A DNA stretch of 64,000 nucleotides from a virus (IMGVR_UViG_3300050014_000899); one strand, 5' to 3'. Counted from the stretch's first letter, positions 7,475 to 22,693 are shown. The notes: generated by a model not told the origin, from the sequence alone. Made by a program: numbers and translations.

Positions 7475-7481
7475 CTAATTT

Positions 7482-7556
7482 GGTCTCATAGTACAACGGA
7501 TAGTGCGCGAGTTTCCTAAACTTGAAATCCGGGTTCGATTCCCAGTGAGATCACCA
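7482..7556 (+). tRNA. tRNA-Arg(CCT)
   Basis: cgagt-TT CCT AA-acttg; ACCA end. Confidence 0.9.
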
Positions 7557-7570
7557 AATAATTTATAAAC

Positions 7571-7804
7571 ATGACTCATACTCTTAAGCAAATTGTTAAG
7601 GGTAATACTGCTCGCTTTTCATATGCATGCGAAGGGAAGCTCTATTACACTATTGAAGTAGAAGAATCAGTATATCAAGTAGAATTGGACAGTACCGCCG
7701 ATGAATGGAGGGCAACATATATGACCCCAACTTTTCCTGCCATCACTCTTATGAGATGGATCAGAAAAGGTATGGAAAATGAAAAATTTATTCAGATAAA
7801 GTAG
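7571..7804 (+). CDS. hypothetical phage protein
   Basis: ORF after tRNAs. Confidence 0.65.
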   Translation: MTHTLKQIVKGNTARFSYACEGKLYYTIEVEESVYQVELDSTADEWRATYMTPTFPAITLMRWIRKGMENEKFIQIK

Positions 7805-7825
7805 ACAACTTTAGGATATTTTTCG

Positions 7826-7833
7826 TATATTTG
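7826..7833 (+). promoter_or_regulatory. Bacteroidota RpoD -7 element (TAnnTTTG)
   Basis: TATATTTG; same motif at 17628, 21190, 30283, 40633. Confidence 0.6.
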
Positions 7834-7837
7834 TCCC

Positions 7838-8269
7838 ATGGTAATTCACGAAATATTGAAGGAACATGGGATTTTTAGTAATGACATAAAAGTCAAAATT
7901 AAAAATGGCCAGATTAAATTAAATGGAGAAGTTGTTACGGATCCTTTAATGGATTTGGATATTGAATTCGTGAAGAAGGAGGACCGGCCTACCAAAGAAA
8001 CCCCTGCATTTGAAGATGCTGGAAATTTTCTTTTCAGAGCAATTAGTAAAGACAAAGAATGTTTTGACTTATGTACAGCTATGGGGGTTGATGGATTGGG
8101 TATTCATCCAGAATTTTGGCCAGATTTGAATTTTACCAACAAACTAGTTGAAAAATTTAGAAAGGTTTATGTCTTAAAGATTTCTAAAAAAGAATGGATC
8201 ATACTCCAGAAAAAAGAAGTTGAAATTGAAACGGAAGAATTTTTAATATTGAAGAAAAATGATTGTTAA
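7838..8269 (+). CDS. hypothetical protein, possible S4-like RNA-binding N-terminus
   Basis: IKVKIKNGQIKLNGEVVTD resembles the S4 motif. Confidence 0.45.
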   Translation: MVIHEILKEHGIFSNDIKVKIKNGQIKLNGEVVTDPLMDLDIEFVKKEDRPTKETPAFEDAGNFLFRAISKDKECFDLCTAMGVDGLGIHPEFWPDLNFTNKLVEKFRKVYVLKISKKEWIILQKKEVEIETEEFLILKKNDC

Positions 8270-8492
8270 AAAAAGAACTGATAAGATTGAAGTTGACCTG
8301 ACAGGTCCGCATGGAAATGCTTATGCTCTTTTAGGATTAGCAAGTGATATTTGCAAGAATTTAAATCGTCTTGCAGGAAAAGAATTATATGACTTCAAAG
8401 AAATTGAAAAAGATATGAAGAGTTCTGATTATGAACATCTTTTGGAAGTTTTGGAAGAACACTTTGGTAACTTTATAATATTATACAGATGA
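8259..8492 (+). CDS. hypothetical phage protein
   Basis: DLTGPHGNAYALLG...MKSSDYEHLL. Confidence 0.65.
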   Translation: MIVKKRTDKIEVDLTGPHGNAYALLGLASDICKNLNRLAGKELYDFKEIEKDMKSSDYEHLLEVLEEHFGNFIILYR

Positions 8493-8896
8493 GATTTGCA
8501 AATGATCCAGCGGAGCCAACAACTCCCACGAACCCGAAATTATCTTCGATAGCTTATACATTGTCAAAATTGACTGTATTGGAAGCTAAAGAATTAGCTG
8601 ATATACTTGAAAACGATTTTGGTATCAAGAAAGCTAAAACAGAGTTTAAACCTGCAGGATATGAACCTGTTCCTGAAGTGGAACAAACTGAATTCAATGT
8701 TTACCTCAAAGAAATTGGCAATCAAAAATTGCAGGTTATAAAAAAGGTCCATGAAGTAATGGGATTGGGTCTTAAAGAAGCCAAAGCATTGGTTGATTCT
8801 ACCCCCTGTCTTTTAAAAGAAAAGATTTTAAAAGCTGAAGTAACAACCATAAAAGCCGAATTGGAAAATGTCGGAGCAGTAGTGGAAGTGAGATGA
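8489..8896 (+). CDS. rplL: ribosomal protein bL12 (L7/L12)
   Basis: LTVLEAKELADILE; EQTEFNVYL..KLQVIKKV..GLGLKEAKALVD; LENVGAVVEV. Confidence 0.9.
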   Translation: MRFANDPAEPTTPTNPKLSSIAYTLSKLTVLEAKELADILENDFGIKKAKTEFKPAGYEPVPEVEQTEFNVYLKEIGNQKLQVIKKVHEVMGLGLKEAKALVDSTPCLLKEKILKAEVTTIKAELENVGAVVEVR

Positions 8897-9180
8897 AATT
8901 AAAGAACCTCATATTAGCATTAAAAGATCAAGGTCCGCTTAAAAGAGCTTTTCGAAACTTCTTTATAACTGGAAATGCATGGGGTTTATTTTCCATAAAC
9001 TCTCACATAAGGCAGGATACTCAAAAGCCAAAGGTGACTTATAATACTCAAGAAACAGCTGCTAAATCAGCTATCAGTTTGGGTAAGAAAAATGGGGTTC
9101 ACTTTAGCTATTACAAATGTGCTTACTGTGATGGTTATCATATCGGTAAGAATAGAGACAATAAAACAAATGAAAAATAG
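8893..9180 (+). CDS. hypothetical protein with C-terminal Zn motif
   Basis: YKCAYCDGYHIG. Confidence 0.6.
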   Translation: MKLKNLILALKDQGPLKRAFRNFFITGNAWGLFSINSHIRQDTQKPKVTYNTQETAAKSAISLGKKNGVHFSYYKCAYCDGYHIGKNRDNKTNEK

Positions 9181-9571
9181 AGCAAAAGGTTTTTATTGGG
9201 TTCAATATGCAAATTTATCTTGGGTAGTTTGCGAATGGGATGGTGTCCAATGGCATCACCAAGGGGCAAGTTATCCGGATGAAAGTTTTAAACAGATTCA
9301 TGAGATAAGAATTGAGCCTCCAAAACCCAAAGATGTTAGAAATTCCGATGGTATATGGACTCCAGAATGTTTAATTTTTTAAAATGAGAATAATAATCAC
9401 AGCTGAAGAAGCAATCGATAAAGGAATCTGGGAAGATTTATGCGACATGGTCGGATACAGTTATTATGCAGTTAACGAAGGTATGGACCCTGATACAGAA
9501 ATTTCTTTAACAGAGGATCAAGCAAGACAGCTGGGAGTAATACCTGCAAAAAATAGTATTTCCTGGGACTA

Positions 9572-10206
9572 ATGAAAGCATATCACACAATACAGAAATA
9601 TACCGAGGATCACTATGGAAAGTTTGTATGGGCTTTCGATAAGGTAGATGGATCTAATTTCAGGTAGAGTGGGATAGAAAACTTTCAAAGAAAAGCCAGT
9701 TTACATTTGGATTCAAAAAATTCGGGACAAGAACCGAAATGATAATGAACAACAGAAATCCATTTATTGAAGCTGTTACTTTGTTTGAAATGGAATATGC
9801 TCCAAAATTTGACCAGATTTTTAAAGACGCAAAAGAGCTAAGAGGAGTTCCGATAATTACCTTATTTGGAGAGTTTTATGGTCCAGGTAGCTTTGCAGGT
9901 ATGCACGATTGGAACGCTACCCATAGTTTAACATTTTTCGATGCGGCAATATATAAGAAGGGATACCTTCCTCCATCAGATTTTCAAAATCTATTTGGAG
10001 AACTCCCCATACAAAAACTTATTTGGAAAGGAATTTTCAATGAGGAATTTGTAAAAAGAGTAGAAGCCAATGAATTCGGACTTTCCGAAGGAATAGTTTA
10101 CAAGGGCGTTGAAGACGGAGATGTCTTTATGGGCAAAATCAAAACTCTTCAATGGCTCGAAAGTATAAGAAATAAGTACGGTATCAAAAAAATGCTAGAG
10201 TACTAA
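9572..10206 (+). CDS. ATP-dependent RNA ligase-like nucleotidyltransferase, frameshifted near 9664
   Basis: motif I DKVDGSNFR upstream of the shift; LFGEFYG, FFDA, EGIV, MGKIK downstream. Confidence 0.7.
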
Positions 10207-10393
10207 TGGAAGATTTCAAAAAGAAGCGAAAAGATCTTCGCGATCGAAAAAGAGAAGCAATGAACGAGGAATATAAATCCGCCAAAGAAAGAAAAGGGGT
10301 TGTTAACACATTTAAAAGAGAATCCAGATCCATTAAGAGATCTGAGAAAAATGAAATAAAGAAAGTTCTTCGGAACGATTTTGGAATTTAAAC

Positions 10394-10469
10394 GCGCCGG
10401 TATCACGCCTCGCTACGAACGAGGAGAAGTGTAATTGGACACATGAGGGTTCGAATCCCTTTCGGCGTT
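10394..10469 (+). tRNA. non-canonical tRNA-Arg(ACG) lacking a normal D arm
   Basis: cctcg-CT ACG AA-cgagg directly after the acceptor strand; TAATTGG after the anticodon arm; T arm. Confidence 0.65.
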
Positions 10470-10637
10470 CTAATGGGTAAAGTGTTATACGGTCTGAAGC
10501 CCGGGTTTGGGAAATGAATCATCAGAGTACCTCAGGTCTATAAAATAACACAAGAGGGGAATCTTTTCAGATGATCAATCCTTCAAAGACGCTGAATTTA
10601 TCCAGGTGGGAAGGGTTCGCCCGATTCTCACCAAATT

Positions 10638-10709
10638 GCGGAGGTAGTATAACGGTTAGTATAGGGCCTTGCCAAGGCTCAGATGGGTTTTCGATTAACC
10701 TTCTCCGCA
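10638..10709 (+). tRNA. tRNA-Gly(GCC)
   Basis: gggcc-TT GCC AA-ggctc. Confidence 0.85.
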
Positions 10710-10761
10710 CAAAGTAGCAAAATTGGTAGAGCGCATGTGAATATATATAGAAAATATTCGC

Positions 10762-11568
10762 ATGCTACCAAGAAATAAAAAAAATTGTGAAAAATGCAAT
10801 AAAGAAATAAGTTTGTCTAATTTTAATTTGCATTATTCTTCATGTAAAGGAAATATAGAAGAAACAAAGATAAGAGTAAAAGAAGAATGGAAATTGGTCA
10901 ACGGAAAATACAAATGTCCATATTGTAATAAAGAGTATTCGAAGAATGGAATTTCTACACATATTATAAGAAATCATACCGAAAAAGGAAAAGGGCAAAA
11001 TCCCAATATTGGTTTTTTAAAGGAAACCCAAATTATTTGGAATAAGGGGTTATCAAAGGAAACAAATAAAAGTCTTGAAAATCTTTCAAAAACATTATTA
11101 AAAAAATATAAATCTGGAGAATTAAAATCCGGATTTAAAAATAAAAAACATAATAAAATATCATGTGAAAAAATGTCTAAAAGTGCTATTCTAGCATTTC
11201 AAGAAGGAAGACATTCTGGATGGGTTTCAAGAAAAATACAAAGTTATCCTGAGATATATTTTGAAAAGGTTTTAAAAAGCAAAAAGTTATTTGAAGAATG
11301 TATCCCTGAATATTTTATTAAACATAAAAACAATTCTAATTATTTTTTGGATTTTTATTTTCCAAATAAAAGGATTAATTTAGAAATTGATGGCTCTCAA
11401 CATGAATTGGAAGATCGAAAAATATCTGATAATCAAAGAGATAATTTTTTATCAGAACAAAATATATTTGTTTTTAGAATAAAATGGAGAAACCCAAAAT
11501 CATTAGATGGTAAAAAATATTTGGAGAATAAAATAAAAGAATTTATTGAATTATACAAGCGGAAGTAG
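10762..11568 (+). CDS. homing endonuclease, Zn finger plus DUF559/Vsr-like nuclease
   Basis: KCPYCNKEY..THIIRNH; YFLDFY...LEIDGSQH..DNQRDNFL. Confidence 0.8.
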   Translation: MLPRNKKNCEKCNKEISLSNFNLHYSSCKGNIEETKIRVKEEWKLVNGKYKCPYCNKEYSKNGISTHIIRNHTEKGKGQNPNIGFLKETQIIWNKGLSKETNKSLENLSKTLLKKYKSGELKSGFKNKKHNKISCEKMSKSAILAFQEGRHSGWVSRKIQSYPEIYFEKVLKSKKLFEECIPEYFIKHKNNSNYFLDFYFPNKRINLEIDGSQHELEDRKISDNQRDNFLSEQNIFVFRIKWRNPKSLDGKKYLENKIKEFIELYKRK

Positions 11569-11631
11569 CTCAGTTGGTAGAGCACCGTCCTTCCACGTCG
11601 GGGGTCGCGAGTTCGAACCTCGTCTTCCGCT
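11559..11631 (+). tRNA. tRNA-Gly(TCC)
   Basis: GCGGAAGTAGCTCAGTTGGTAGAGC; loop CT TCC AC. Confidence 0.9.
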
Positions 11632-11638
11632 CAATTTT

Positions 11639-11710
11639 GCCTCTATGGTGTAATGGATAACATGGGTGACTTCGGATCATCTGTTACGGGTTCGAATCCT
11701 GTTAGGGGCA
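11639..11710 (+). tRNA. tRNA-Arg(TCG)
   Basis: ggtga-CT TCG GA-tcatc. Confidence 0.88.
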
Positions 11711-11731
11711 CAACTTTTTTAAACTAAAATA

Positions 11732-12031
11732 ATGAATTATACAAATTATATTTTAAGCGGAAACTCTATCAATATCAATTCTCTCATCTCCAAAAAAAGA
11801 TACTTAAAACCAATAACTATTACAATTGCTATTCCAGTAGCTATAGTAGGATTTCTAGCATTTTCGGGAATATTACCAGCAACCTATATAATAGATCGTG
11901 TTAAAGAAGGAGAAATTAAATATCTTAAAGTTATAAGAAAATATAAAAGAAACAAAGAGTTTCAAGCTTTTTTAGAAACCATTTCAGATGATAAAGAAGA
12001 AATGAAAAGAATCAAAAAAATGTATCATTAA
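11732..12031 (+). CDS. hypothetical membrane protein
   Basis: one hydrophobic segment. Confidence 0.55.
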   Translation: MNYTNYILSGNSININSLISKKRYLKPITITIAIPVAIVGFLAFSGILPATYIIDRVKEGEIKYLKVIRKYKRNKEFQAFLETISDDKEEMKRIKKMYH

Positions 12032-12330
12032 TCATGAAAAAATTATTCGATGGTCATTAGGTAAGAAAGTTACCTAAAATAAGACCATTATGAGAAGAAG
12101 ACATTATTTGAAAACGACTCAAATACTTGAGCACACCACAAATCGTAGAGAATTTAAAATTCTTACCACCGTTGATCAAGATCCATATCCTGAAGAGTAT
12201 GGGTATTACCAAAAGCACAAATGGGGATTCAGAGGATGCAGAAAGTCCAGATTAATCTGGAAACATCAAGTAAGAATGTATCGTACTTGGAAGCATAATA
12301 GAAAAACCCAGTATAAATATAATAAAAACG

Positions 12331-12723
12331 ATGGATATATCCACAATAACGAAGGAACAATTTGATTTAGCTTATAATAAGTTTCAACCAAATGCTTGGG
12401 TCAAATTTGGATTTAAGTACTTTTCTAATAGTACTTTAAAAGAAAATTTCAAAATAAAGAAAACTGTAACTTGGATTCTCGGTGTTCTTTTTGGAATTGG
12501 TTTTTTAGCAACTGTAATTGGATTACCGCACAATGTAATTGCAGTTCCTGTTCTAATATATTCAGGAATTATTGTTATTTTAGCTATTATTATGGGGGGA
12601 TCCGCTCTAATGAATAATCTGAGAATTAAAAAAATTCAGAAAGAATTAGGAGTAAACATTTGGCAATATGAAGCTTTAGTAAATATGTTTTATCCAACCC
12701 CTATCAACCCACTTCAAAATTAA
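12331..12723 (+). CDS. hypothetical membrane protein
   Basis: two hydrophobic segments. Confidence 0.65.
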   Translation: MDISTITKEQFDLAYNKFQPNAWVKFGFKYFSNSTLKENFKIKKTVTWILGVLFGIGFLATVIGLPHNVIAVPVLIYSGIIVILAIIMGGSALMNNLRIKKIQKELGVNIWQYEALVNMFYPTPINPLQN

Positions 12724-13310
12724 TGAATAAATTGAGTCCTTTTCTTCAATACAAGGACATCCTTGAGAAATATTTGTCTCCTAAAACCATTTTTAAATTA
12801 AAGGAGGCTTGGAATGAACCCAGAAGAAGGTATCATAATGAAGATCACTTATATCAGATTTTAAAAGATCTCGAAAAAAGTAAATCAAAAGTATCTTCAG
12901 TTCAATGGGAATCTTTAGTAATAGCCGCTTTCTTTCACGATGCTATTTATGTTCCGGGGAATTCCAATAACGAGGATCAGTCCATTAAAGTTTTCTTAGA
13001 GTCTTTTTTAGGAAAAAGATTTGATATGGTTAAAGCTATTAAAGAAATGATCAAAGCAACTCAATTTAGAGTGGTTCCAGCGGATAAACTAGTTAAGATT
13101 TTTTGGGAAGCAGATAATGCAGGATTCCAGGGACCATTTGAAAGTTTTTTAGAAACCGAGAAGAAGATTAGATTAGAGTTTGGACATGTTTCTTTGCATA
13201 CTTATAAGAAAGGAAGACTAAAGTTTCTCAATTCCTGTTTAGGATTAATGGGGCCAAAAGCAGACGAAAACGTCTCAAAACTAATCGAGTACATAGAAAA
13301 AAATTACTAA
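12723..13310 (+). CDS. HD-domain phosphohydrolase
   Basis: EPRRRYHNEDH...AAFFHDAIY..NEDQS. Confidence 0.8.
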   Translation: MNKLSPFLQYKDILEKYLSPKTIFKLKEAWNEPRRRYHNEDHLYQILKDLEKSKSKVSSVQWESLVIAAFFHDAIYVPGNSNNEDQSIKVFLESFLGKRFDMVKAIKEMIKATQFRVVPADKLVKIFWEADNAGFQGPFESFLETEKKIRLEFGHVSLHTYKKGRLKFLNSCLGLMGPKADENVSKLIEYIEKNY

Positions 13311-13369
13311 TTTTAACGTTTTTTCTTCAAAAATATTTTTTTTCTAAGTAAAATAATTGTACATTTACT

Positions 13370-13813
13370 ATGAAATTAAAAATAAGAGATATGAGAACCA
13401 CAGGCGTTATCGAATTCGAAGGATTTAAATTCAAAAATACAGAATTTCAATTTAAGAACAAGAAAGAGATGAACAGCTTTTTTAATGAGGTTCTTATTGA
13501 TAGTCCTCAGAGATTCATTAATACTTTGGATCGTTGGAATTTGGAAAATATGCACATTGCGTTTTCACAATTTATGCTGATGAAAGTTATTGCTTTTTCA
13601 GGTCTTGGAATGGGATTAGTATCAATACTTGCAAAGCTTCCGTCAATTGTTGGAATTGGTTTCGTAGTAATGGCAGCAGTTAATTATATTGCAAGCAAAA
13701 AAGCCGAAAAAAGACTTGATAACATCAACTACAGCAGAGGAGATTATGAAATGATGGCTGAAGGACTTGATGAAGTTCGTGAAGATTTAATAAAAGAAAA
13801 AAATTCAAAGTAA
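13370..13813 (+). CDS. hypothetical membrane protein
   Basis: two hydrophobic segments. Confidence 0.6.
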   Translation: MKLKIRDMRTTGVIEFEGFKFKNTEFQFKNKKEMNSFFNEVLIDSPQRFINTLDRWNLENMHIAFSQFMLMKVIAFSGLGMGLVSILAKLPSIVGIGFVVMAAVNYIASKKAEKRLDNINYSRGDYEMMAEGLDEVREDLIKEKNSK

Positions 13814-13848
13814 TACAAAACCTAAGCATTTTTACGTATATAAGATAG

Positions 13849-13855
13849 ATATATA
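13849..13855 (+). promoter_or_regulatory. ATATATA promoter-like motif for tRNA operon 2
   Basis: same motif and near-identical spacing to ATG as for leader 1. Confidence 0.55.
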
Positions 13856-13879
13856 AAGAAACAACAAAAAGTTAAAACA

Positions 13880-13957
13880 ATGAAAAGGCAGTCCATACAT
13901 ACGATTAGTATTACCTCATCACACGATAAGGGCGGCCTTTTTATGACTAGACTTTAG
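13880..13957 (+). CDS. leader peptide 2 (MKRQSIHTISITSSHDKGGLFMTRL) of tRNA operon attenuator
   Basis: 11 consecutive Ser/Ile/His/Thr codons before a Ser/His/Thr/Ile-only tRNA operon; GGCCTTTTT (13934-13942) can pair with the terminator 5' arm. Confidence 0.85.
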   Translation: MKRQSIHTISITSSHDKGGLFMTRL

Positions 13958-13982
13958 TACTAAGATATTAAATGATTTATTC

Positions 13983-14015
13983 AAAGGAAGGCTCCAATCA
14001 GTCTTCCTTTTTTTT
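13983..14015 (+). terminator. attenuator terminator of tRNA operon 2
   Basis: AAAGGAAGGCT-ccaatc-AGTCTTCCTTT plus T-run, 5 nt before tRNA-Ser. Confidence 0.85.
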
Positions 14016-14020
14016 GTTTT

Positions 14021-14106
14021 GGAGAGTAGCATTCGATGGTGGATAACAGGTCTCGAAAACCTGGCCGGCGGTTCAAATCCCAAGGGTTCGACTCCTTTAC
14101 CCTCCG
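14021..14106 (+). tRNA. tRNA-Ser(CGA)
   Basis: caggt-CT CGA AA-acctg; long variable arm; G73. Confidence 0.85.
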
Positions 14107-14122
14107 CTAGAAAATAAAATAT

Positions 14123-14212
14123 GGATGGGTACCCAAATTGGTTAAGGGGGCGGTCTTGAAAACCGTTAGGTCGTGTAAACACGGCGCGTGGGTTCGAACC
14201 CCACCTCATCCG
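14123..14212 (+). tRNA. tRNA-Ser(TGA)
   Basis: gcggt-CT TGA AA-accgt; long variable arm. Confidence 0.92.
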
Positions 14213-14215
14213 CAA

Positions 14216-14285
14216 GGGGCGAAACCAACTTCGCAAGTTGGATCTGGATTTAGCTACCAGATAAGCATATGTGTGATGCTGTCCC
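14216..14285 (+). ncRNA. three-hairpin small RNA of unknown type
   Basis: CCAACTT/AAGTTGG, ATCTGG/CCAGAT and AGCAT/ATGCT hairpins closed by GGGGC/GTCCC. Confidence 0.45.
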
Positions 14286-14291
14286 GGTTAT

Positions 14292-14368
14292 GGTGGTATT
14301 AGTGTTAGTGGTAAGCACGAAAGTCTGTGGAACTTTTAGGATGGGTTCGAATCCCATATAACACCCCA
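14292..14368 (+). tRNA. tRNA-His(GTG)
   Basis: aaagt-CT GTG GA-acttt; encoded G-1, C73 and CCA. Confidence 0.88.
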
Positions 14369-14372
14369 TTAT

Positions 14373-14452
14373 GGTAGACGTAGCTTAATTGGTTAAAGGG
14401 CCAGATTGTGGATCTGATGCGATTGAGGGTTCGAATCCCTTCGTCTACCCCA
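14373..14452 (+). tRNA. tRNA-His(GTG)
   Basis: caga-TT GTG GA-tctg; encoded G-1, C73 and CCA. Confidence 0.88.
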
Positions 14453-14453
14453 C

Positions 14454-14526
14454 GCCTCTATAGTATAGTTGGTAATTATAGCTGATTCGTAATCAGCAGA
14501 CTGGGATTCGAATTCCCGTAGAGGCT
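14454..14526 (+). tRNA. tRNA-Thr(CGT)
   Basis: gctga-TT CGT AA-tcagc. Confidence 0.88.
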
Positions 14527-14533
14527 CAATAAT

Positions 14534-14607
14534 GCACCCTTAGCTCAGCTGGTAGAGCACTTGCTTGGTAAGCAAGAGGTTCCCGGATTCGATCTCCGGA
14601 GGGTGCT
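14534..14607 (+). tRNA. tRNA-Thr(GGT)
   Basis: cttgc-TT GGT AA-gcaag. Confidence 0.9.
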
Positions 14608-14688
14608 CAAAAGCATACGTGTATGCGACAATAGTGAAGAGTGGTAATACACCCCGCCGTTAACTTGAGGAGGTCAGGCACTATTTTT

Positions 14689-14773
14689 GGAGGGTTGACC
14701 GAGAGGTAAGGTATCGCTCTGGAAAGGCGAAGTCAGGGTTAAACTTGGGTGGGATCGTTACCCGCATCCTCCG
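14689..14773 (+). tRNA. tRNA-Ser(GGA)
   Basis: tcgct-CT GGA AA-ggcga; long variable arm. Confidence 0.85.
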
Positions 14774-14780
14774 CAAAAAT

Positions 14781-14853
14781 ACTGGTGTGGCGCAATGGTA
14801 AGCGCAGGACCCTTATAAGGTCAAGGTTGGGGGTTCAAGTCCCTTCACCAGTA
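14781..14853 (+). tRNA. tRNA-Ile(TAT)
   Basis: gacc-CT TAT AA-ggtc. Confidence 0.88.
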
Positions 14854-14860
14854 CAAATTT

Positions 14861-14937
14861 CGGCCTGTATACCCTCTGTCTGATAAACAGTTGAAAGGTT
14901 AGCTGGTTGCATAGTGGTTCGACTCCACTCAGGCCGA
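14861..14937 (+). tRNA. non-canonical tRNA-Ile(GAT) lacking a normal D arm
   Basis: CGGCCTG/CAGGCCG acceptor; ctgt-CT GAT AA-acag; TAGCTGG after the anticodon arm; T arm. Confidence 0.65.
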
Positions 14938-14943
14938 CAAAAT

Positions 14944-15016
14944 GGGCGTATCATATAGTTGGTTAGTATACGTGCCTGATAAGCACGACACGGAGGTTCG
15001 AGGCTTCCTATGCCCA
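14944..15016 (+). tRNA. tRNA-Ile(GAT)
   Basis: cgtgc-CT GAT AA-gcacg. Confidence 0.88.
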
Positions 15017-15091
15017 CAAATTCTAGAGGGTTAAGAAATGGGGATAGCAATCTAGCCTGCATTTTTACGGATATATATAATAAATAATATT

Positions 15092-15838
15092 ATGTATAAG
15101 TGTAATCATTGCGATAAAGAATTTGAATTAAAACAACAAAAAACTAATCATGAAAGATGGCATGCCAATCCTAAACACAATGAGATTAAAAAAGAATATT
15201 GTTGTTCGATATGTGGAAAAACATTTACAAATTTTGGATGGAAACAAATTCATGAAAAATATTGTGATGGATCAGGATTAACTAAAAAAGAAAAAATTCT
15301 TAAAAACAGAGAAAATAATAAAGGCAAAACTTTTGATGAAATTTTAGTTCAAAAAGGAACTTATGAAAAGTTTTGTCAAAATGTATCTTTTGGAATGAAA
15401 GAAGCTTTTAAAGAAGGCAAATTTACCGGATCCCCATCTACAGAAGAAGGCAAAAAAAGAAAAAATGAAAAATTAAGACAGAGTACATTAAAAAGATACA
15501 AGGAGGGGTGGGATTCAAAATGTGGAAGAGCTCCTAAATATCATTACGAAAGCAAGATAGCAGGAAAAATAACTGTTGATGGGTCATGGGAATTAAATGT
15601 AGCCAAATATTTAGATAACAATAATTTTAGATGGATTAGAAATACAAAAAGATTTGATTATGTTAATTTAGAAGGAAAACAATCAACATATAAACCGGAT
15701 TTTTATATTTTTAATTGGAGTAGTTATTTAGAAATAAAAGGATTTGAAACAAAACTGGATAAATGTAAATGGGAGCAATTTAAAGAACCCCTAATAATAT
15801 GGAAAAGAAATGATTTAAAAGAATTAAAAATAATTTAA
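15092..15838 (+). CDS. homing endonuclease, C2H2 Zn fingers plus PD-(D/E)XK domain
   Basis: YKCNHCDKEF..HERWH; GSWE...YKPDFY...LEIKG. Confidence 0.8.
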   Translation: MYKCNHCDKEFELKQQKTNHERWHANPKHNEIKKEYCCSICGKTFTNFGWKQIHEKYCDGSGLTKKEKILKNRENNKGKTFDEILVQKGTYEKFCQNVSFGMKEAFKEGKFTGSPSTEEGKKRKNEKLRQSTLKRYKEGWDSKCGRAPKYHYESKIAGKITVDGSWELNVAKYLDNNNFRWIRNTKRFDYVNLEGKQSTYKPDFYIFNWSSYLEIKGFETKLDKCKWEQFKEPLIIWKRNDLKELKII

Positions 15839-15840
15839 AA

Positions 15841-15927
15841 GGAGAGTAAACCGGAAAGGTTTGCCGGAACCGCCTGCTAAGCGTGTTGAGCGTTAATTCG
15901 CTTGGTTTTCGAATATCCTGCTCTCCG
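15841..15927 (+). tRNA. tRNA-Ser(GCT)
   Basis: cgc-CT GCT AA-gcg; long variable arm; G73. Confidence 0.8.
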
Positions 15928-15933
15928 CTCATG

Positions 15934-15973
15934 AAAAAGACCCAATATAATTTTTTTATATGGGTCTTTTTTT
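15934..15973 (+). terminator. intrinsic terminator ending tRNA operon 2
   Basis: AAAAAGACCCA...TGGGTCTTTTTTT. Confidence 0.75.
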
Positions 15974-16002
15974 GTACATTTACAGAGTTAAAAAGTATAT
16001 GT

Positions 16003-16386
16003 ATGAACTTTGAAAGACATCAGGATCCTTTAACCTCAATGAATATTGGGATTACTACTTGGGATAAACTGCAGCAAGGTCAAGTCCTAAAAACTAAAAG
16101 AAGCGTAAAGCTTACCGAAATCCCTGGGGGAGCATGGAAAATAAAAGCTGATGGTAGTGTGTTGGATAATTCTATTGGTAAAGATATGTTCTGCCATCTT
16201 ATTCGTGTAAACCACGTTAGGGTAAAAGACGGAAAAACAAAAATTTTACAAATTGTATTTGCTGAATATTTATGGTTAGACAGTATAGCTAAAGATACTA
16301 AACAATTTACAGCTACAAAAACTTTAATTGGAAATATTGATCAGATCAAAAGTAGATTTGAAATTATTCAAAGAGTAAAAATATGA
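16003..16386 (+). CDS. hypothetical protein, FER..DP...IG N-terminal motif family (start corrected)
   Basis: MNFERHQDPLTSMNIG; the upstream extension in the ORF track overlaps a tRNA and terminator. Confidence 0.7.
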   Translation: MNFERHQDPLTSMNIGITTWDKLQQGQVLKTKRSVKLTEIPGGAWKIKADGSVLDNSIGKDMFCHLIRVNHVRVKDGKTKILQIVFAEYLWLDSIAKDTKQFTATKTLIGNIDQIKSRFEIIQRVKI

Positions 16387-17168
16387 AAAATCATTTTGTC
16401 CGAGGGGGAAATGTCATTAAGAAATTAGGTATAGGAAGATCCATTCTTGATGAACTCATGGAACATAAGGTTGCTAGACCTATGAATGATCCTCGTGAAA
16501 AGCTGGAGGGAGATGAAAAATACAGTCAGAATATTGCTGTTTGGATAAATCCTAGTAATCAAACCTGTTTTAATGCTATGTGGTGTGACTATCAGAATCT
16601 GGAGGATTGGATGAACGGAAAAGGACCGATGGTTAAAGGGGATACAGATGAGGAAAAGAAAAAATATTGGGATTATGCTGTAGCTGAAGCAGAAGACACG
16701 GAACATATGATGTGGTCCATTTTATATCATTGGAAATGGTTTGACCAGTTTACAACAGATTTTGATCCTCATAAACATGCAGCTTCTTTTGGAATAAGTA
16801 ACGTTATAAAAAATCCTCTTAAGCTTAACAAGAAAGACCCCTCGGAAACTATAAAAGCTATGTATGCTCCGTATGTGGATGAAATGGCCAGAGATATGGA
16901 ATATAGGGACTGGGGTAACATTAGAAGAGAAGCTGAAAAAGAATGGTATGGGATTAAAAGAACCCTTTATTGTTTAGGAATTGGTTATATGGGAGCTTGC
17001 AATACCCCAGAGGAGATTGAAAATCTTAATTGGATTGAAGGTATTGTTCTATCTAAAGCATATTATAATGGATTGATTAAATATTCCCCCCATAAATCTC
17101 TTCCTGATTTTGCATGGCTTTCCCAAAAAGAGCAAGATAAATACAAGAAAGATAAGATGGATTTATGA
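16383..17168 (+). CDS. hypothetical protein with related N-terminal motif
   Basis: HFVRGGNVIKKLGIG. Confidence 0.7.
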   Translation: MKNHFVRGGNVIKKLGIGRSILDELMEHKVARPMNDPREKLEGDEKYSQNIAVWINPSNQTCFNAMWCDYQNLEDWMNGKGPMVKGDTDEEKKKYWDYAVAEAEDTEHMMWSILYHWKWFDQFTTDFDPHKHAASFGISNVIKNPLKLNKKDPSETIKAMYAPYVDEMARDMEYRDWGNIRREAEKEWYGIKRTLYCLGIGYMGACNTPEEIENLNWIEGIVLSKAYYNGLIKYSPHKSLPDFAWLSQKEQDKYKKDKMDL

Positions 17169-17587
17169 AAAACCAACTCCTATGGAATGAATCGCTTGAA
17201 ACTGGTATCGTTGAATTAGATATTCAGCATAGAAACCTTTTCAACATATTTAAGATTCTACGCGATGCTATTGAAAACAAAAAATCTTCATTAGTTATTA
17301 AATACATTATTGAAGAGGTAGAACGATACGGAGAGTATCACATAAATGCCGAAGAAGAGATTCTAAGAAAATATCAGGTATTAAGTGAATCCCATTATAG
17401 GGAACACGAAAGCTTCAAAAAAATCGTTCATGATTTTAAAGAAAGATATATCACAACCCCAGATAATATTTTAGCTGAGGAAATTTCTAAATATCTCTAT
17501 AGCTGGGTAACGAATCATATCATGAAAATTGATATGGAAGACATTCGGCTTCTGAATGAAGAATTTAAAAAAGCTGGAAAGCTTTAA
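17165..17587 (+). CDS. bacteriohemerythrin
   Basis: W...LETGIVELDIQH; HINAEE; HYREH; WVTNHIMKID. Confidence 0.9.
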   Translation: MKNQLLWNESLETGIVELDIQHRNLFNIFKILRDAIENKKSSLVIKYIIEEVERYGEYHINAEEEILRKYQVLSESHYREHESFKKIVHDFKERYITTPDNILAEEISKYLYSWVTNHIMKIDMEDIRLLNEEFKKAGKL

Positions 17588-17655: not shown

Positions 17656-20296
17656 ATGGAAGAAATGGATCCCAGAGACGTAAAAGATAAAGATGGCAAC
17701 ATCGTTATGAACTGTACTGGTTACGAAGCTTATCTCAAAGAAAACGGAAAACTCAGCTTAAAAGGAATGAAAAGAGGAGACCAGATTGAGGTTAGTACTT
17801 ACTGGGGGAGCAAAAGAGTCGTAGTAGATGGTTTCGAGGATAATCATATTTTCTGCGATGATGATGGTGTTGAAATGTGTGTTGCTTTACAACAGGATTC
17901 TGGAAGACTTATGTTTGTTGATAGAACTGAAAGATAATGGCAAAAGAAACCGAATTACACAGAGCTATAATGAGTAGCCGAGAAATCTCCTTCGAAGAAG
18001 CAGATGATTTGATTGCTGAAATGAAAGAACGATTCAAAGAAGGGGAAGACCCGGAAGAGGTTCTTTTAAGCGAAGGATATGAACCTGATTACGTATTTGA
18101 TATATTATTTGACTAATGAAAACATTTGAAGAAATCGACATTACTGCTCCTCTTTTGAAAGAGGAATTCTTCATGTTATTTGATACTCAGCTTCCATTAA
18201 ATGATGCTGAAAAGAAGAAAATAAATGAAGACTATTTTCCCTTATATGCTTTATTTATAACTGATGGCGGAGTTACGCCGGAAGTAGCATTTGAAGCAAC
18301 CAAAACAGTTTTTTATAGTCAGGAAACTCAGATTAAAGAACGTCTCGATGGAAAAATTTGAAAATACAGGAAAAACAACCCATTGCGATGCATTGGGAAA
18401 TCCTATTGAAATAGGCAAGGCTTATGGTTTTTCTAAAAATGTAAACGGTCTTACCCAAGTCATAATAGGGGTTGCTAAAAAACTTACTGATCATGGGGTA
18501 ACTCTTACCGTAATCAGTTCTTGCAAAGCTCTTTATGATTATGATTCGGAACCTGAAGAAACAAAAGCATCTGTAACAACTCGAGGAATGATGATGTTTC
18601 CTATTCCGCCAGCGAAAACTCGTAATCCCGGGACATTTATTCATGGAAACAACAACGGGTTTGCTCATTTGGATGATTAAGATTTAACCAGAATTTAACA
18701 AAAACTTCAAAACTATCTCTAAAACTAGCATAAAAAGAGTGTCCAGAGAGAAGGTAAGAAGGTTACTTATAATAGAAAGGAAAGAAATGGCAACAAATTT
18801 CATGACGACTAAGTTCGATAAGTGGTTAAACAGAGATGTTAAAACCCACAAAAAAGGAGTAACCTTAATCCATTTATTTCACGAAGTATGGAGAACCGGA
18901 AAACTCAATGAGAAAAAAGATAAACCAGCTCACCTGGTTATCTATGATCCCCATGATAAACAATACGATGTTTATGGGCAGGAAGCTTTGGATTTAATGA
19001 GTGCCTACACTCGCGAATTTCGTGGATGCATGAGAGTCGATCCAGCCAAAGTAAAAATCTATATCTTATCTTCAATCCTTGATAAAAAGGAAAACTGGTG
19101 CTTTAATCTTTCGGAAAAACCAGCTGTTGATGCTATGATCAAAGTTATTTATAACAACGGAACGATCAAAGTTATCAAATCTACAGGTAACTGGGAGCCT
19201 GAAGTTATTGACAGAAAATACTCAGAGGATACTTCTATACCTCAAACAATTTACCCGGTTGCTTATAAATGCAAACAATGAAAAGCGATAAAAAATACGT
19301 CGTTTTAGAACATCTAACCCTACCAGATAGAGGTTTTAGATTTTTCACTGCCAATACGGAAGATAATACTCACGGACGTAATGGGGAACTTTGGTATAAA
19401 GAAGTTCTTTTTACCGATAGCACCAAGGAAGCTCAGGAGGCATGTCGAAGTCTTGGCGAGGTTCCATCCATGCATGAATTGGAAGAATATTATAGAAACT
19501 TATTAGAACAAGAAAATGAAAATTAAAGGTTATGTACTCGTTGGGGTTTCCAGAGGGGTTTCCAGAGATGTAAATTTTTACTTCTCTAGATCTCAGGAAA
19601 AATTTGTGGATAGTGTTATGAAATTAAATCTGTCTGATCTGGAAGAAGAACCAAGCGGGGTTGGCCCAACTGAGATGCTTAAGATAAGACAGGATTATCC
19701 GCTTATTGATAGTATCAAAGGATATGCTAAAATCAAAATTAAAATAAAGCTATGAATAGAAGAAACTTGCGTAGAATGATTCTACTTTTAGCCACTGCTG
19801 TTGCTATAATTCTAATGTTATCCAGCTGTATGTGCAAAGGGATGCCCGATGATGCAGTAACAGTCACCACGAATTTTTATGTTACCGATGTTTATGTCGG
19901 CAAATATTCTAAGGTAAAGGGATATATCATTTACAAAGATATAAAAATCCCAGCTGATAATGGTGGTTCTGGATATTATAGTTTAACTGAAGGAAGCGTT
20001 GTTCCGGTAACAATTAGTATTGCTATAGAGAATGATGGGTATAATTCTGTTACTCTTAGAACTTCCGCTCTGGATTTAACCAAATACATTCAATAATGGA
20101 ATTCAATACATGCGGCACTTGTGGTGCTAAAAATGGAAGAGCAGGTCCTCTTATAGCTACAGAAAAAAGCAATCGGGTTTTTGAATGTATGAATTGTCAT
20201 GATACCAGGGAATCTGGAGAAATTACTATTCATACGAATCTATCCAGAACTGATGCAGAAATTGAAAAAACAATGAAAATACTTGATACAAAATGA
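17656..20296 (+). other. run of small hypothetical early-type ORFs
   Basis: abutting ORFs at 17656, 17937, 18116, about 18348, 18739, 19269, 19516, 19752 (lipoprotein-like LSSC) and 20096. Confidence 0.6.
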
Positions 20297-21165
20297 AAGA
20301 CGAATTAGGTGACAGAATGAAGGGTAATTACGAAGACAGAACTCGTTTCTCCCTTCCAAGAAGAACATATACAATTATCCGAGTTGACGGAAAAGCATTT
20401 CACACATTAACAAAGGGGATGTGTAAACCGTTCAGCGTAGATTTTAAACAAAACGTATTTGCTGGTTTTATGGACAAAACAGCAAAAGCTTTATGCGAAC
20501 ATATTCAAGGAGCTCAGTTTGCTTTTGTTCAGTCCGATGAAATCTCAGTTTTGTTAACTGATTTTGAAAAGACTACAACTGATGCATGGTTTGATGCCAA
20601 TATTCAGAAAATGGCTTCCGTAGCTGCTTCAATTGCTACAGCTGCTTTTAACAAAGCTAGACTGATAAGAGTTTTCGAGGAATTCCCCAATACATTTGAT
20701 ATTGAACCTGAATTGGATTGCTATACTGTTGCAAAAATGATCGATATGGTTAAAGTTGGGGAATTTGATGCAAGAGTATTTACTATCCCGGATCCAATAG
20801 AAGTTGAAAACTACTTTATATGGAGACAAAAAGATGCCGTAAGAAACTCTGTTTCGATGGCCGCTAAATCTCTTTATTCAACAAAAGAACTCGAAGGAGT
20901 ATCTTCTCAGGGAAAACTGGATTTGATTCACGATAAAGGAGAAAATTGGAATGATCTCCCCGATGGATTTAAAAGAGGACGTTTAATATCTTACAACTAT
21001 TCTTTTGATCTTGAAACTGCTCCTTTAAATACTGGATCCTTTAAAGAAGAACACCAAATGGTTGAGGGGGTTTCCAGAGGAGCTTGGGAAGTTAATCCTG
21101 CTCCGGATTTTCTTAAGGAAAGGGATGAGTTGAGAGACCGTATTCCAAAAATAGAAGTAAATTAA
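20293..21165 (+). CDS. Thg1-like tRNA(His) guanylyltransferase / 3'-5' polymerase
   Basis: RVDGKAFH, VQSDEIS, FDARVF, YFIWRQKDAVRNS. Confidence 0.92.
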   Translation: MKDELGDRMKGNYEDRTRFSLPRRTYTIIRVDGKAFHTLTKGMCKPFSVDFKQNVFAGFMDKTAKALCEHIQGAQFAFVQSDEISVLLTDFEKTTTDAWFDANIQKMASVAASIATAAFNKARLIRVFEEFPNTFDIEPELDCYTVAKMIDMVKVGEFDARVFTIPDPIEVENYFIWRQKDAVRNSVSMAAKSLYSTKELEGVSSQGKLDLIHDKGENWNDLPDGFKRGRLISYNYSFDLETAPLNTGSFKEEHQMVEGVSRGAWEVNPAPDFLKERDELRDRIPKIEVN

Positions 21166-21201
21166 TTTTTTTACTAAGGATTTTTGTTGTACATTTGCTT
21201 T

Positions 21202-21729
21202 ATGAATAAGTATTTAATCTACGGACTTTATTGCCCATTTACCGATAACTTACATTATGTCGGACAAAGCAGTACCGGAATGACGAGACCCAAATCTCAT
21301 ATGACCGGAAGAAGTTCAAAGAAAATAGGTGAATGGGTTGACCAATTAAAATTTTTAGGATATAAGCCTATAATTAAAATACTTGAAGAATGCTCAAAAG
21401 ATAATCTTGATGAAAAAGAAAAATATTGGATTAAAAAATCCAAAGATGAGGGGGCATATCTTTTAAATGTTGTGTACAACAAAACTGAGAAGATATTATT
21501 TCAAAAAGAATATGAATTTAGTGATGCGGATATTTTAACTATTGCTAAAATAATTCGAGAAACCCGCCACAAATTAGATATTCGTCAAGAGGATTTATGC
21601 GAAGCAGCAGGAATTACTCGTCCAACTTTATACATGATTGAAAAAGGAAACAATAAAACAGTTTATAATAATTTGAAAAAGGTTTTGGGGATTTTGGGAT
21701 TTGAAATTACGATTCGAAAAAAATCATAA
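21202..21729 (+). CDS. GIY-YIG nuclease fused to XRE HTH (paralog of 1512..2063)
   Basis: LIYGLYCP...YVGQS; IRQEDLCEAAGITRPTLYMIEKG; start moved downstream of TACATTTG. Confidence 0.75.
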   Translation: MNKYLIYGLYCPFTDNLHYVGQSSTGMTRPKSHMTGRSSKKIGEWVDQLKFLGYKPIIKILEECSKDNLDEKEKYWIKKSKDEGAYLLNVVYNKTEKILFQKEYEFSDADILTIAKIIRETRHKLDIRQEDLCEAAGITRPTLYMIEKGNNKTVYNNLKKVLGILGFEITIRKKS

Positions 21730-22114: not shown

Positions 22115-22693
22115 ATGTTTTATGTATATCAATTAAGTTCTTTATCTTACGGGGTTTTTTATATTGGAAAAGGAAAAGGAAACAGAATGTACCGGCATAG
22201 TGAAATAGCTCGGGGAAATTCTATTAATAGGAAAACTAATATTCATTTGTATAACCGAATTTTAAAAATTATTCAGTCAGATGAAAAATTGGTTTATAAA
22301 AAAATATTTACTTCTGAAAATGAGGAGGAATGTTTAAAAGTTGAAATCCAATATATTAAGGAATATGGAACTTTTCATAAAGTTAAAGGAATTAAGCGAG
22401 GCCCTTTATTAAATTTGACACTAGGTGGAGAAGGAACTTCCGGATATACATTATCCGAAGAGACAAAAGAAAAAATGTCAAAAGCAAAAAAAGGAAAAAG
22501 TTTGCCTAAATGGTCGGATGAGTCGAAAGAAAAGTTGTCAAAAACAAATATGGGGAAGAAGGGATTCTGGGAAGGAAAAAATTTATCCGAAAAAACAAAA
22601 GAGAACATGAGCAAATCTCATCTTGGAAAAAATAAAGGACCCATTTCTGAGAAACGAAGATTAGCTATTATAGAAGGAATGAAAAAATATTGA
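22115..22693 (+). CDS. GIY-YIG homing endonuclease with NUMOD3 repeats
   Basis: FYVY..FYIGKG..R; LLNLTLGGEG; SEETKEKMS. Confidence 0.85.
   Translation: MFYVYQLSSLSYGVFYIGKGKGNRMYRHSEIARGNSINRKTNIHLYNRILKIIQSDEKLVYKKIFTSENEEECLKVEIQYIKEYGTFHKVKGIKRGPLLNLTLGGEGTSGYTLSEETKEKMSKAKKGKSLPKWSDESKEKLSKTNMGKKGFWEGKNLSEKTKENMSKSHLGKNKGPISEKRRLAIIEGMKKY

Follow-up and report, generated by a model that had tools for sequence, protein, structure and literature searches.

A putative leader-peptide attenuator with codons matched to the tRNA genes that it precedes in a peat-soil phage

Leaders that respond to more than one amino acid are well documented in E. coli and Salmonella, where thrL (Thr, Ile) and ilvL/ivbL (Ile, Leu, Val) stand alongside the hisL, leuL, trpL and pheL leaders. 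The E. coli pheM leader attenuates pheST, encoding phenylalanyl-tRNA synthetase, and T-boxes bind uncharged tRNA directly, with no need for translation. To our knowledge, all described leader-peptide attenuators regulate either amino-acid biosynthesis enzymes or an aminoacyl-tRNA synthetase, and the regulation of phage tRNA arrays has hardly been studied. Literature searches returned no published trp-operon-style leader control of tRNA genes, in agreement with the initial annotation of the locus described here, which knew of no equivalent for phage tRNA arrays.

The locus lies in a 64,000-nt stretch of DNA (hereafter, the window) from the peat-soil phage IMGVR_UViG_3300050014_000899, with a GC content of 34%; the public sequencing runs listed as containing this DNA are peat metagenomes, with no RNA run among them. 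From 5' to 3', it comprises a promoter-like motif, a 25-codon ORF, an intrinsic terminator and a tRNA array that begins with tRNA-Ser(CGA) (Table 1). We consider it likely, with a probability of about 0.8, that this cassette is a ribosome-mediated (leader-peptide) transcription attenuator governing the phage tRNA operon, and that the tRNA set is probably made only when ribosomes read its codons slowly.

Table 1. Features of the cassette and of the tRNA operon in the window
Feature	Position	Strand	Evidence or remark
Promoter-like block CAAAACCTAAGCATTTTT...GATATATAAAG	13816..13858	+	22-64 nt 5' of leader ATG
Leader ORF, 25 codons + stop, MKRQSIHTISITSSHDKGGLFMTRL	13880..13957	+	Kept in frame in 13 relatives
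Region 1 ATGAAAAGGC, pairs with region 2	13880..13889	+	MFE fold; RNAalifold consensus
Control codons 5-15, TCC ATA CAT ACG ATT AGT ATT ACC TCA TCA CAC	13892..13924	+	Sequence
Region 2 GGCCTTTTTAT, leader codons 19-22	13934..13944	+	Alternative partners: region 1 or terminator 5' arm
Intrinsic terminator: region 3 (13983-13993), loop, region 4 (14000-14010), U-tract (14011-14020)	13983..14020	+	
tRNA-Ser(CGA)	14021..14107	+	ARAGORN
tRNA-Ser(TGA)	14123..14213	+	ARAGORN, Rfam
tRNA-His(GTG), copy 1	14293..14368	+	ARAGORN, Rfam
tRNA-His(GTG), copy 2	14374..14452	+	ARAGORN, Rfam
tRNA-Thr(CGT)	14454..14527	+	ARAGORN, Rfam
tRNA-Thr(GGT)	14534..14608	+	ARAGORN, Rfam
tRNA-Ser(GGA)	14689..14774	+	ARAGORN, Rfam
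tRNA-Ile(TAT)	14781..14854	+	ARAGORN, Rfam
Non-canonical tRNA-like RNA, GAT anticodon-type loop, no D arm at the usual place	14862..14940	+	
tRNA-Ile(GAT)	14944..15017	+	ARAGORN, Rfam
Inserted 248-aa ORF	15092..15838	+	Weak, sub-threshold C2H2 zinc-finger matches only
tRNA-Ser(GCT)	15841..15928	+	Relaxed ARAGORN settings only
Strong terminator closing the tRNA operon	15933..15972	+	-18.4 kcal/mol, z = -5.4

By analogy, the cassette would share with the biosynthetic leaders (thrL, hisL and others) a short leader rich in regulatory codons, alternative 1:2, 2:3 and 3:4 hairpins combined with an intrinsic terminator, the masking of region 2 by a ribosome completing the leader, and the sensing of several amino acids by a single leader. 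The regulated genes, however, would be 10-11 tRNAs and an inserted ORF instead of enzymes, and the product would therefore be the sensed molecule itself. Further differences are that the phage leader devotes one codon to each isoacceptor (ATA, ACG, AGT, TCA, TCC and others) in place of single-codon runs, and that the leader is phage-encoded, in a lineage that likely infects Bacteroidota. The pheM system is similar in placing a gene of the decoding apparatus under leader-peptide attenuation, but it is bacterial, senses one amino acid and regulates a synthetase. T-boxes likewise couple attenuation to the state of a specific tRNA and control charging or supply genes, whereas the phage cassette would sense through an ORF under codon-level selection. 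A cmscan search of positions 2600-16100 against Rfam (E up to 1) yielded no match to the Thr_leader, His_leader, Leu_leader, Trp_leader, Phe_leader or T-box (RF00230) models; apart from two weak and unrelated matches, all hits belonged to the tRNA clan.

The ATATATA motif upstream of the leader (13849-13855) is contained in GATATATAAA (13848-13857), and the block that surrounds it, retained in 9 of 10 window-type relatives, is one that we infer to act as the promoter. The GATATATAWA pattern occurs six times in the window against 0.77 expected, and around 12 gene starts, including those of this leader and of a second one in the window, have ATATATA 15-35 nt upstream, mostly with CTTTTT before it. 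At the other end of the cassette, the terminator stem (13983-14010) consists of 11 bp with a stability of -12.9 kcal/mol, followed by TTTTTGTTTT, and only ~10 nt separate it from the tRNA-Ser(CGA) start assigned by ARAGORN. Such a gap leaves no room for a promoter; transcription of the tRNAs from a promoter downstream of the terminator, which the initial annotation had named as a finding that would speak against attenuation, cannot fit there. The arrangement of motif, 25-aa ORF, U-tailed terminator and tRNA that it had described was recovered with this ~10-nt distance, and its reading of codons 5-15 was exact when checked again on the sequence.

With default ARAGORN settings and Rfam, the array contains nine tRNAs (Ser CGA, Ser TGA, two His GTG, Thr CGT, Thr GGT, Ser GGA, Ile TAT and Ile GAT). 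The Ser(GCT) gene aligns to standard Ser(GCT) genes in three relatives (L001, L007 and L014). The element at 14862-14940, recognized by neither ARAGORN nor Rfam, is a conserved tRNA-like RNA with a CTGATAA loop; it is homologous to positions 12969-13056 of relative L009, from which it differs by compensatory changes in three stems (acceptor, anticodon and T). The eleven tRNAs originally proposed hence resolve into nine standard genes, Ser(GCT) under relaxed settings and an eleventh member that is tRNA-like but escapes both tools. The 248-aa ORF has an ATATATA motif of its own at 15071, and we read it as a mobile insertion of the homing-endonuclease type because relatives carry weakly GIY-YIG-annotated ORFs at the equivalent place.

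The 11 consecutive Ser/Ile/His/Thr codons in the leader are the longest such run in the six frames of the 64 kb, the runner-up having seven. Only 0.013 runs of at least 11 are expected in the window, and none of 60 Markov simulations reached that length. Eight of the array's nine tRNA species are represented among these control codons (P = 0.014 that 11 codons drawn from Ser/Ile/His/Thr at phage usage reach 8 of 9 decoding classes), and the equivalent 12 codons in L009, L010, L011 and L016 cover all nine (P = 0.0009). The proposal that the leader lists exactly the tRNAs of its operon consequently holds for eight species but not for Ser(CGA), since TCG is absent from the window leader even though tRNA-Ser(CGA) heads the array. 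Codons outside the Ser/Ile/His/Thr set are a Gln at codon 4 in the window and an inserted Arg codon in L008.

Analysis of RNA pairing points to a switch between terminator and antiterminator. Upstream of the terminator, the strongest pairing for its 5' arm is that of GGCCTTTTT with AGGAAGGCT, at -10.4 kcal/mol; this is the antiterminator pairing initially suggested (13934-13942 with 13985-13993), and it is kept in relatives with compensatory changes. In every relative, no segment pairs better with the terminator 5' arm than region 2, and in each of the cassettes, 14 or more in number, region 2 repeats the terminator 3' arm within the last codons of the ORF. Taken singly, antiterminator pairings are modestly better than shuffled controls (P 0.003-0.09). 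Helix 1:2, in which region 1 is the predicted anti-antiterminator and would also sequester the start codon, shows a compensatory pair (A-U to G-C; RNAalifold consensus counts GC:7, AU:3), helix 2:3 presents a replacement series from G-C through G.U to A-U, and the terminator is present in all relatives, with co-variation in its upper stem (3:4). The 2:3 pairs were counted on a hand-anchored register, since in the MAFFT alignment A1 region 2 is misplaced in L014 and L015, and region 3 is displaced in L001 and L016. In masked MFE folds, a ribosome stall at codon 7 yields the antiterminator, and a ribosome at the stop codon, which masks region 2, does not; the expected effect of a ribosome footprint was thus reproduced for a stall at codon 7 but not in the window folds for stalls at codons 10 and 13, which gave no antiterminator. 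The antiterminator and terminator are predicted to be mutually exclusive, and the switch would have to be kinetic, as in trp, because the terminator is the more stable of the two structures.

The cassette was found in 13 of 13 metagenomic relatives, in which the neighboring HD protein is 39-88% identical; L002 duplicates L001, leaving 12 distinct relatives. In ten of these, the leader and terminator lie immediately 5' of a Ser/Ile/His/Thr array, with ~400 nt between terminator and array in L014, and 0.7-1.7 kb, including a protein gene, between the terminator and a Thr/Ser array in L012 and L013. The first 33 nt of the leader are identical at 27-33 positions in nine relatives and at 22 in L014, and the flanking 147-aa protein is 39% identical where 30 of the 33 leader nucleotides are identical. 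These relatives share ancestry, and counts of conserved cases are therefore not independent events. Further searches added no relatives: a DNA search of GenBank phages gave tRNA-level matches only and no close relative, an IMG/VR search with the 147-aa neighbor protein recovered zero relatives, and an IMG/VR DNA pattern scan returned three already known contigs and nothing further. No tRNAs were found near the HD homolog in LR745206.1 (L025).

Several substitutions in these leaders point to decoding as a target of selection. Codon 5 is TCC, TCA, TCT, TCG or AGT across relatives, and hence Ser throughout, codon 10 is AGT or TCG, and positions 8, 12, 14 and 15 vary solely among Ser, Thr, Ile and His. 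The switching of Ser positions between the TCN and AGY codon families indicates selection on decoding and not on RNA sequence. Leader composition also co-varies with array content, a test that the initial annotation had named, both among these related phages and in a far more distant one of 735 kb. ACA and ACT make up 34% and 38% of Thr codons in phage genes; ACA does not occur among the control codons of any of the nine window-type leaders that lack a Thr(TGT) array, and is used in the leaders of L015, L012 and L013, all three of which have Thr(TGT) in their arrays. L015 has ACA in place of ACG and lacks Thr(CGT), and both leader His codons and downstream His tRNAs are absent from L012 and L013. 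Mismatches were also detected: L014 and L015 leaders have TCG and no Ser(CGA) was detected, L016 retains ACG, ACC and TCC with no Thr or Ser(GGA) tRNA found on the contig, and L013 has Thr(CGT) and a leader without ACG.

Further cassettes were identified within the window and in a distant genome. The second leader of the window (leader 1, 2702-2806) is kept in L017 and L013. The published 735-kb phage LR756501.1 harbors four cassettes, each fitting its own array and with leaders preceded by an ATATATA-type motif. A leader with Ser, Lys, His, Phe and Trp codons precedes Trp, His, Phe, Lys and Ser tRNAs; a Leu leader using all six Leu codons precedes five tRNA-Leu; a Met/Ile/Gln/Glu leader precedes Met, Gln, Ile and Glu tRNAs; and a Thr/Pro/Ala/Val/Arg/Gly leader precedes Arg, Thr, Val, Ala, Gly and Pro tRNAs. 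No leader or terminator was seen directly upstream of the third array of this phage (Ile, Cys, Asp, Asn, Tyr; L026 from 26273). Among eight leaders and eight arrays, the true pairing ranks at the top of 40,320 permutations, and for six leader/array pairs from two distant phages it is 1 in 720. The motif GTTCTTTGAC occurs 3' of terminators in both LR756501.1 and L012/L013; a role as promoter in that position was considered and discarded, with 12 occurrences in the window against 9.4 expected and none after the window terminator. Cassettes apparently occur also in the cultured phage phiCbK, where, in the part of the genome covered, annotated terminators (48120-48166, 49745-49769 and 51465-51502) lie just 5' of tRNA blocks and gp083, a candidate leader rich in Ser, Leu, Pro and Lys, precedes Pro, Lys, Leu and Ser tRNAs.

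Taken as an attenuator, the cassette would operate as follows. Transcription would start at a CTTTTT...ATATATA phage promoter, and a ribosome on the leader would test, through codons 5-15, the supply of Ser (GGA, TGA, GCT), Ile (TAT, GAT), His (GTG) and Thr (CGT, GGT) tRNAs, with one or two codons for each. Under fast decoding, the ribosome would cover region 2 and reach the stop codon, so that the 3:4 hairpin would form and transcription would end ~10 nt before tRNA-Ser. If any one aminoacyl-tRNA were short, the ribosome would stall in the control codons, leaving region 2 free to pair with the terminator 5' arm as an antiterminator, and RNA polymerase would read the 10-11 tRNA genes as far as the closing terminator. 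If the leader were not translated, region 1 would bind region 2 and termination would be favored. Both translation of the leader and stalling-dependent read-through are what we infer from this architecture, and the natural trigger may be an anticodon nuclease, host tRNA decay, codon-usage demand or starvation. Since the operon products would relieve the stall, the circuit would constitute a negative-feedback, OR-gated supply control of one tRNA set.

An unlikely alternative is that the cassette is a true leader-peptide attenuator that senses general translation capacity, the stage of infection or Ser/Ile/His/Thr starvation, possibly as a timer set by ribosomes that become limiting or modified late in infection, the codon match serving only to let the phage's own tRNAs decode the leader. 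Because attenuators of this type react to charged tRNA, sequence cannot separate shortage of an amino acid from shortage of its tRNA; moreover, genes for ribosomal protein L7/L12 and a Thg1-like enzyme lie in the region, suggesting a wider remodeling of translation. A general sensor, however, would need neither one codon per isoacceptor nor array-specific leaders within one genome, and would leave the change from ACG to ACA that accompanies the change from Thr(CGT) to Thr(TGT) unexplained, while extra tRNA would bring no relief from an amino-acid shortage. Somewhat less probable still is that the terminator, constitutive or leaky, shields the tRNA operon from transcription arriving from upstream and never switches, the ORF being a conserved micropeptide or an RNA element of different function. 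The hairpin is indeed a strong terminator after an upstream gene, and the modest advantage of single antiterminator pairings over shuffles fits this reading, but a promoter-like motif lies between the upstream gene and the leader, Ser codon-family switches reveal selection on decoding, region 2 copies the terminator 3' arm with compensatory changes, and unrelated peptides each fit their own array. Finally, although short ORFs and A/U-rich complementary stretches are common at 34% GC, a chance ORF in an AT-rich spacer is excluded as far as sequence analysis allows by the 0.013 such runs expected per window, the retention of the ORF in 13 relatives and the 1/40,320 permutation result.

The purpose of phage tRNA genes has been debated for some 50 years; they might compensate for codon usage, replace host tRNAs as that pool decays, or allow evasion of anticodon nucleases. 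If the attenuator reading is correct, phage tRNAs would be made on demand, with slow decoding of specific codons as the signal, and the function of an array would become directly testable. It would provide a sequence rule to predict which tRNAs share one regulatory unit, extend classical attenuation to a case in which the regulated product is the sensed molecule, and supply synthetic biology with compact natural parts that report the supply of individual isoacceptors. These ideas can be tested now because cassettes occur in a published huge phage, LR756501.1, and apparently in the cultured phiCbK. More tentatively, large phages of several lineages may have split their entire tRNA complement into modules, each autoregulated by a codon-matched, OR-gated leader, such that the phage would sense, codon by codon, the decoding capacities lost to anticodon nucleases, phage-induced host tRNA decay or codon-usage mismatch, and resupply only those. 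If true, this would represent a general, previously undescribed layer of phage translation control and, possibly, a counter-defence sensor.

The Ser/Ile/His/Thr operon is the last block of the window tRNA region, and the promoter-like motif, mini-ORF, U-tailed hairpin and first tRNA-Ser(CGA) that the initial annotation had described were all found in place. Standard tools recovered nine of the 11 tRNAs claimed there (Ser CGA, TGA and GGA; His GTG twice; Thr CGT and GGT; Ile TAT and GAT), and tRNA-Ser(GCT), detected under relaxed settings, can be aligned to the regular Ser(GCT) genes that relatives carry. The second Ile(GAT) did not hold up as a canonical tRNA. It corresponds to a conserved non-canonical tRNA-like RNA with acceptor, anticodon (GAT loop) and T arms and a D-loop-like AGCTGGTT motif 3' of the anticodon arm, with compensatory changes in three stems relative to its homologue in a related metagenomic locus (L009). 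Two spacers of about 80 nt within the array contain several small hairpins and match neither tRNAs nor Rfam families.

Coordinates of the features discussed (window positions unless another locus is named; L-numbers denote fetched loci)
Feature	Locus	Position	Remarks
tRNA region	window	2934-15928	~30 tRNA genes, all + strand
Promoter-like motif	window	13848-13857	GATATATAAA
Leader ORF	window	13880-13957	25 codons, peptide MKRQSIHTISITSSHDKGGLFMTRL
Region 1	window	13880-13889	ATGAAAAGGC
Region 2	window	13934-13944	GCCTTTTTAT
Terminator hairpin	window	13983-14010	11 bp, then U-tract
tRNA-Ser(CGA)	window	14021 (start)	first of array
Spacers	window	14214-14292; 14609-14688
tRNA-like RNA	window	14862-14940	GAT loop
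Homologue of tRNA-like RNA	L009	12969-13056
tRNA-Ser(GCT)	window	15841-15928
Closing terminator	window	15933-15972	strong
Second cassette, ATATATA motif	window	2670
Second cassette, leader ORF	window	2702-2806	MTRRANMDNFVDWGFNRAANKDGGYGCPLRWRGI (begins MTRRANMDNFVDWGFNRAANKDGG...)
Second cassette, terminator	window	2834-2859
Homologous leaders	L017(-); L013	1675-1575; 1423-1509	homologous to 2702-2806
LR756501.1 cassettes	L026	6513-6659; 18847-18981
LR756501.1 cassette	L027 (reverse complement)	2287-2416
LR756501.1 cassette	L028 (reverse complement)	2905-3108
Leader MLQTSKHSKHFSSSSKWF...	LR756501.1		array: Trp, His, His, Phe, Lys, Ser
Leader MNNILHINLLNSLCLLGIKLIG	LR756501.1		all six Leu codons used; array: five tRNA-Leu
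Leader MNFRIINMIQEQMQQIQ...	LR756501.1		array: Met, Gln, Ile, Glu
Leader ...TPAPAVAFRRGTGTGTGTCVPAGCG...	LR756501.1		array: Arg, Thr, Val, Ala, Gly, Pro
Motif GTTCTTTGAC(A/G)T..TTGAAATA	L026	~18990-19010
Same motif	L027 (reverse complement)	~2520-2545
Same motif	L028 (reverse complement)	~3150-3175
Same motif	L012; L013	~12906-12920; ~14040-14055
Interrupted tRNA	window	3870-4019	Rfam 49.2 bits
TCA-anticodon tRNA	window	5262-5337	Rfam 54.9 bits
ORF	window	4087-4806	PD-(D/E)XK
ORF	window	6353-6859	NUMOD3
ORF	window	10762-11568	DUF559 + zinc fingers
ORF	window	15092-15838	zinc-finger matches only, all sub-threshold
ORF	window	21184-21729	GIY-YIG + HTH
ORF	window	22115-22693	GIY-YIG + NUMOD3
Ribosomal protein L7/L12 homologue	window	8489-8896	phage-encoded
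Hemerythrin-domain protein	window	17165-17587	phage-encoded
Thg1-like tRNA-His guanylyltransferase	window	20293-21165	phage-encoded

The run of 11 Ser/Ile/His/Thr codons in the leader is the longest in six frames of the 64 kb (runner-up, 7), with 0.013 runs of at least 11 expected and this length reached in none of 60 Markov simulations. The arrangement initially annotated is thus real and non-random. Of the nine decoding classes in the array, the 11 codons of the run cover eight (P = 0.014 for Ser/Ile/His/Thr codons drawn at phage usage).

The leader proved to be conserved in relatives. Using the neighbouring HD-family protein, we retrieved 13 metagenomic loci (HD identity 39-88%), all of which present a leader ORF and a terminator ahead of an array of Ser/Ile/His/Thr (or Ser/Thr) tRNAs. 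Both elements are kept in L015 and L016 though the first tRNA there is Ile(GAT), not Ser(CGA), and the array does not directly adjoin the terminator in L014 (gap of ~0.4 kb), L012 (~0.7 kb) and L013 (~1.7 kb). Leader conservation far exceeds that of the surroundings: the window and L001 share 30 of 33 nt there, against 39% identity for the adjacent 147-aa protein. Codon 5 is TCC, TCA, TCT, TCG or AGT, encoding Ser throughout, codon 10 is AGT or TCG, and positions 8, 12, 14 and 15 vary solely within Ser, Thr, Ile and His; this substitution pattern points to selection on decoding. In the commonest leader form (L009, L010, L011 and L016), coverage extends to all nine tRNA species with twelve codons (P = 0.0009).

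Without constraints, the window fold pairs region 1 with region 2 and also forms the terminator. The antiterminator initially proposed, in which region 2 pairs with the terminator 5' arm (region 3), finds support in all relatives, where the best upstream partner of that arm is invariably the region 2 segment, located within leader codons 18-22 and lying 9-14 nt before the stop-codon end. Compensatory double changes affect helix 1:2 (G-C in seven sequences, A-U in three), helix 2:3 (from G-C through G.U to A-U, this last reached in L015) and the terminator stem. When the effect of the ribosome was modelled by folding transcripts ending before region 4, the terminator 3' arm, region 2 was predicted to pair with the terminator arm with the ribosome at codon 7, but not at the stop codon. 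As in the trp attenuator, the terminator is predicted to be more stable than the antiterminator, and the choice between them must therefore be kinetic.

The initial annotation had suggested testing whether leader composition co-varies with array content, and this is indeed the case. Among phage genes, ACA and ACT account for 34% and 38% of Thr codons, and ACA is missing from the control run of every window-type leader that is paired with an array without tRNA-Thr(TGT). In L015, ACA replaces the conserved ACG and the array contains Thr(TGT) and lacks Thr(CGT); in L014, ACG is absent from the control run and Thr(CGT) is likewise missing. The more distant L012 and L013 present divergent leaders (MKAINNISISITSSTTGTE and MKKYFLSISTSSSTSITTLME) with ACA and no His codon, followed by arrays confined to Thr (TGT included) and Ser tRNAs, their His tRNAs being located elsewhere. 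The matching is imperfect, and exceptions exist.

Similar cassettes precede other arrays. A second window cassette, with homologous leaders in two relatives, stands ahead of a large tRNA array (Asp, Trp, Ala, Lys, Val, Phe, Met, Arg and Gly). A 33% identical HD protein homologue is encoded by LR756501.1, a published phage of 735 kb, and after locating all its main tRNA arrays we identified four codon-matched leader/terminator cassettes, each ahead of a different array. In all four, the terminator 3' arm is copied in the last leader codons, generating a predicted perfect antiterminator of 8-10 bp. When each leader was scored against each array, the true pairing came first among the 40,320 permutations of 8 pairs and was 1 of 720 when only the 6 pairs of the two distant phages were used.

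ATATATA lies 15-35 nt before about 12 gene starts in the window, both leaders included, usually with CTTTTT 6-17 nt upstream, and the same CTTTTT...ATATATA motif precedes the LR756501.1 leaders. A promoter downstream of the terminator, raised initially as a contrary case, has no room, since the U-tract ends only ~10 nt from tRNA-Ser. Another recurrent motif, GTTCTTTGAC(A/G)T..TTGAAATA, occurs in distant relatives after terminators and between tRNA-like elements, and shows no enrichment in the window.

As a whole, the window is phage-like (34% GC) and part of a ~153 kb contig; its DNA is present in peat metagenomes, and DNA searches of GenBank phages revealed no close relative. Its tRNA genes are interspersed with small ORFs and with insertions of nuclease type (PD-(D/E)XK, DUF559, NUMOD3). 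Most of the six nuclease or zinc-finger ORFs sit between tRNA genes, at locations that vary among relatives, and the two GIY-YIG ORFs lie downstream of the tRNA region. The genes for the L7/L12 homologue, the Thg1-like enzyme and the hemerythrin-domain protein are located nearby, and RNA ligases and IF1 also adjoin arrays in relatives. The tRNA with anticodon TCA, labelled 'SeC' by ARAGORN, is possibly an opal suppressor, despite which window ORFs look intact under code 11. Another tRNA, with a ~77 nt interruption in the anticodon loop region, is probably tRNA-Asn(GTT), judging by synteny with L011, L012 and L013.

At the sequence level, the reading of the cassette as a leader-peptide attenuator draws strong support from its anatomy and conservation, from compensatory changes, and from leaders and arrays that match repeatedly and independently. 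An anticodon nuclease is a plausible natural trigger, one among several. The window cassette matches no leader family and no T-box in Rfam. The initial annotation knew of no described equivalent for phage tRNA arrays, and our full-text literature searches likewise turned up no account of tRNA genes or phage tRNA arrays being controlled by leader peptides; the paper publishing LR756501.1 makes no mention of attenuation or leaders. The cassette shares its design with the classical multivalent leader attenuators (thr, ilv, his), from which it differs in that the genes putatively controlled are tRNA genes, and it would represent a variation on a known type of regulation, leader attenuation, applied to tRNA genes. 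In the cultured Caulobacter phage phiCbK (JX100813.1 46800-53200, L032), three tRNA blocks are immediately preceded by annotated rho-independent terminators, and the 45-aa, Ser/Leu/Pro/Lys-rich gp083 precedes tRNAs for Pro, Pro, Lys, Lys, Leu (three) and Ser (two). This phage could be an experimental system for tRNA-array attenuation.
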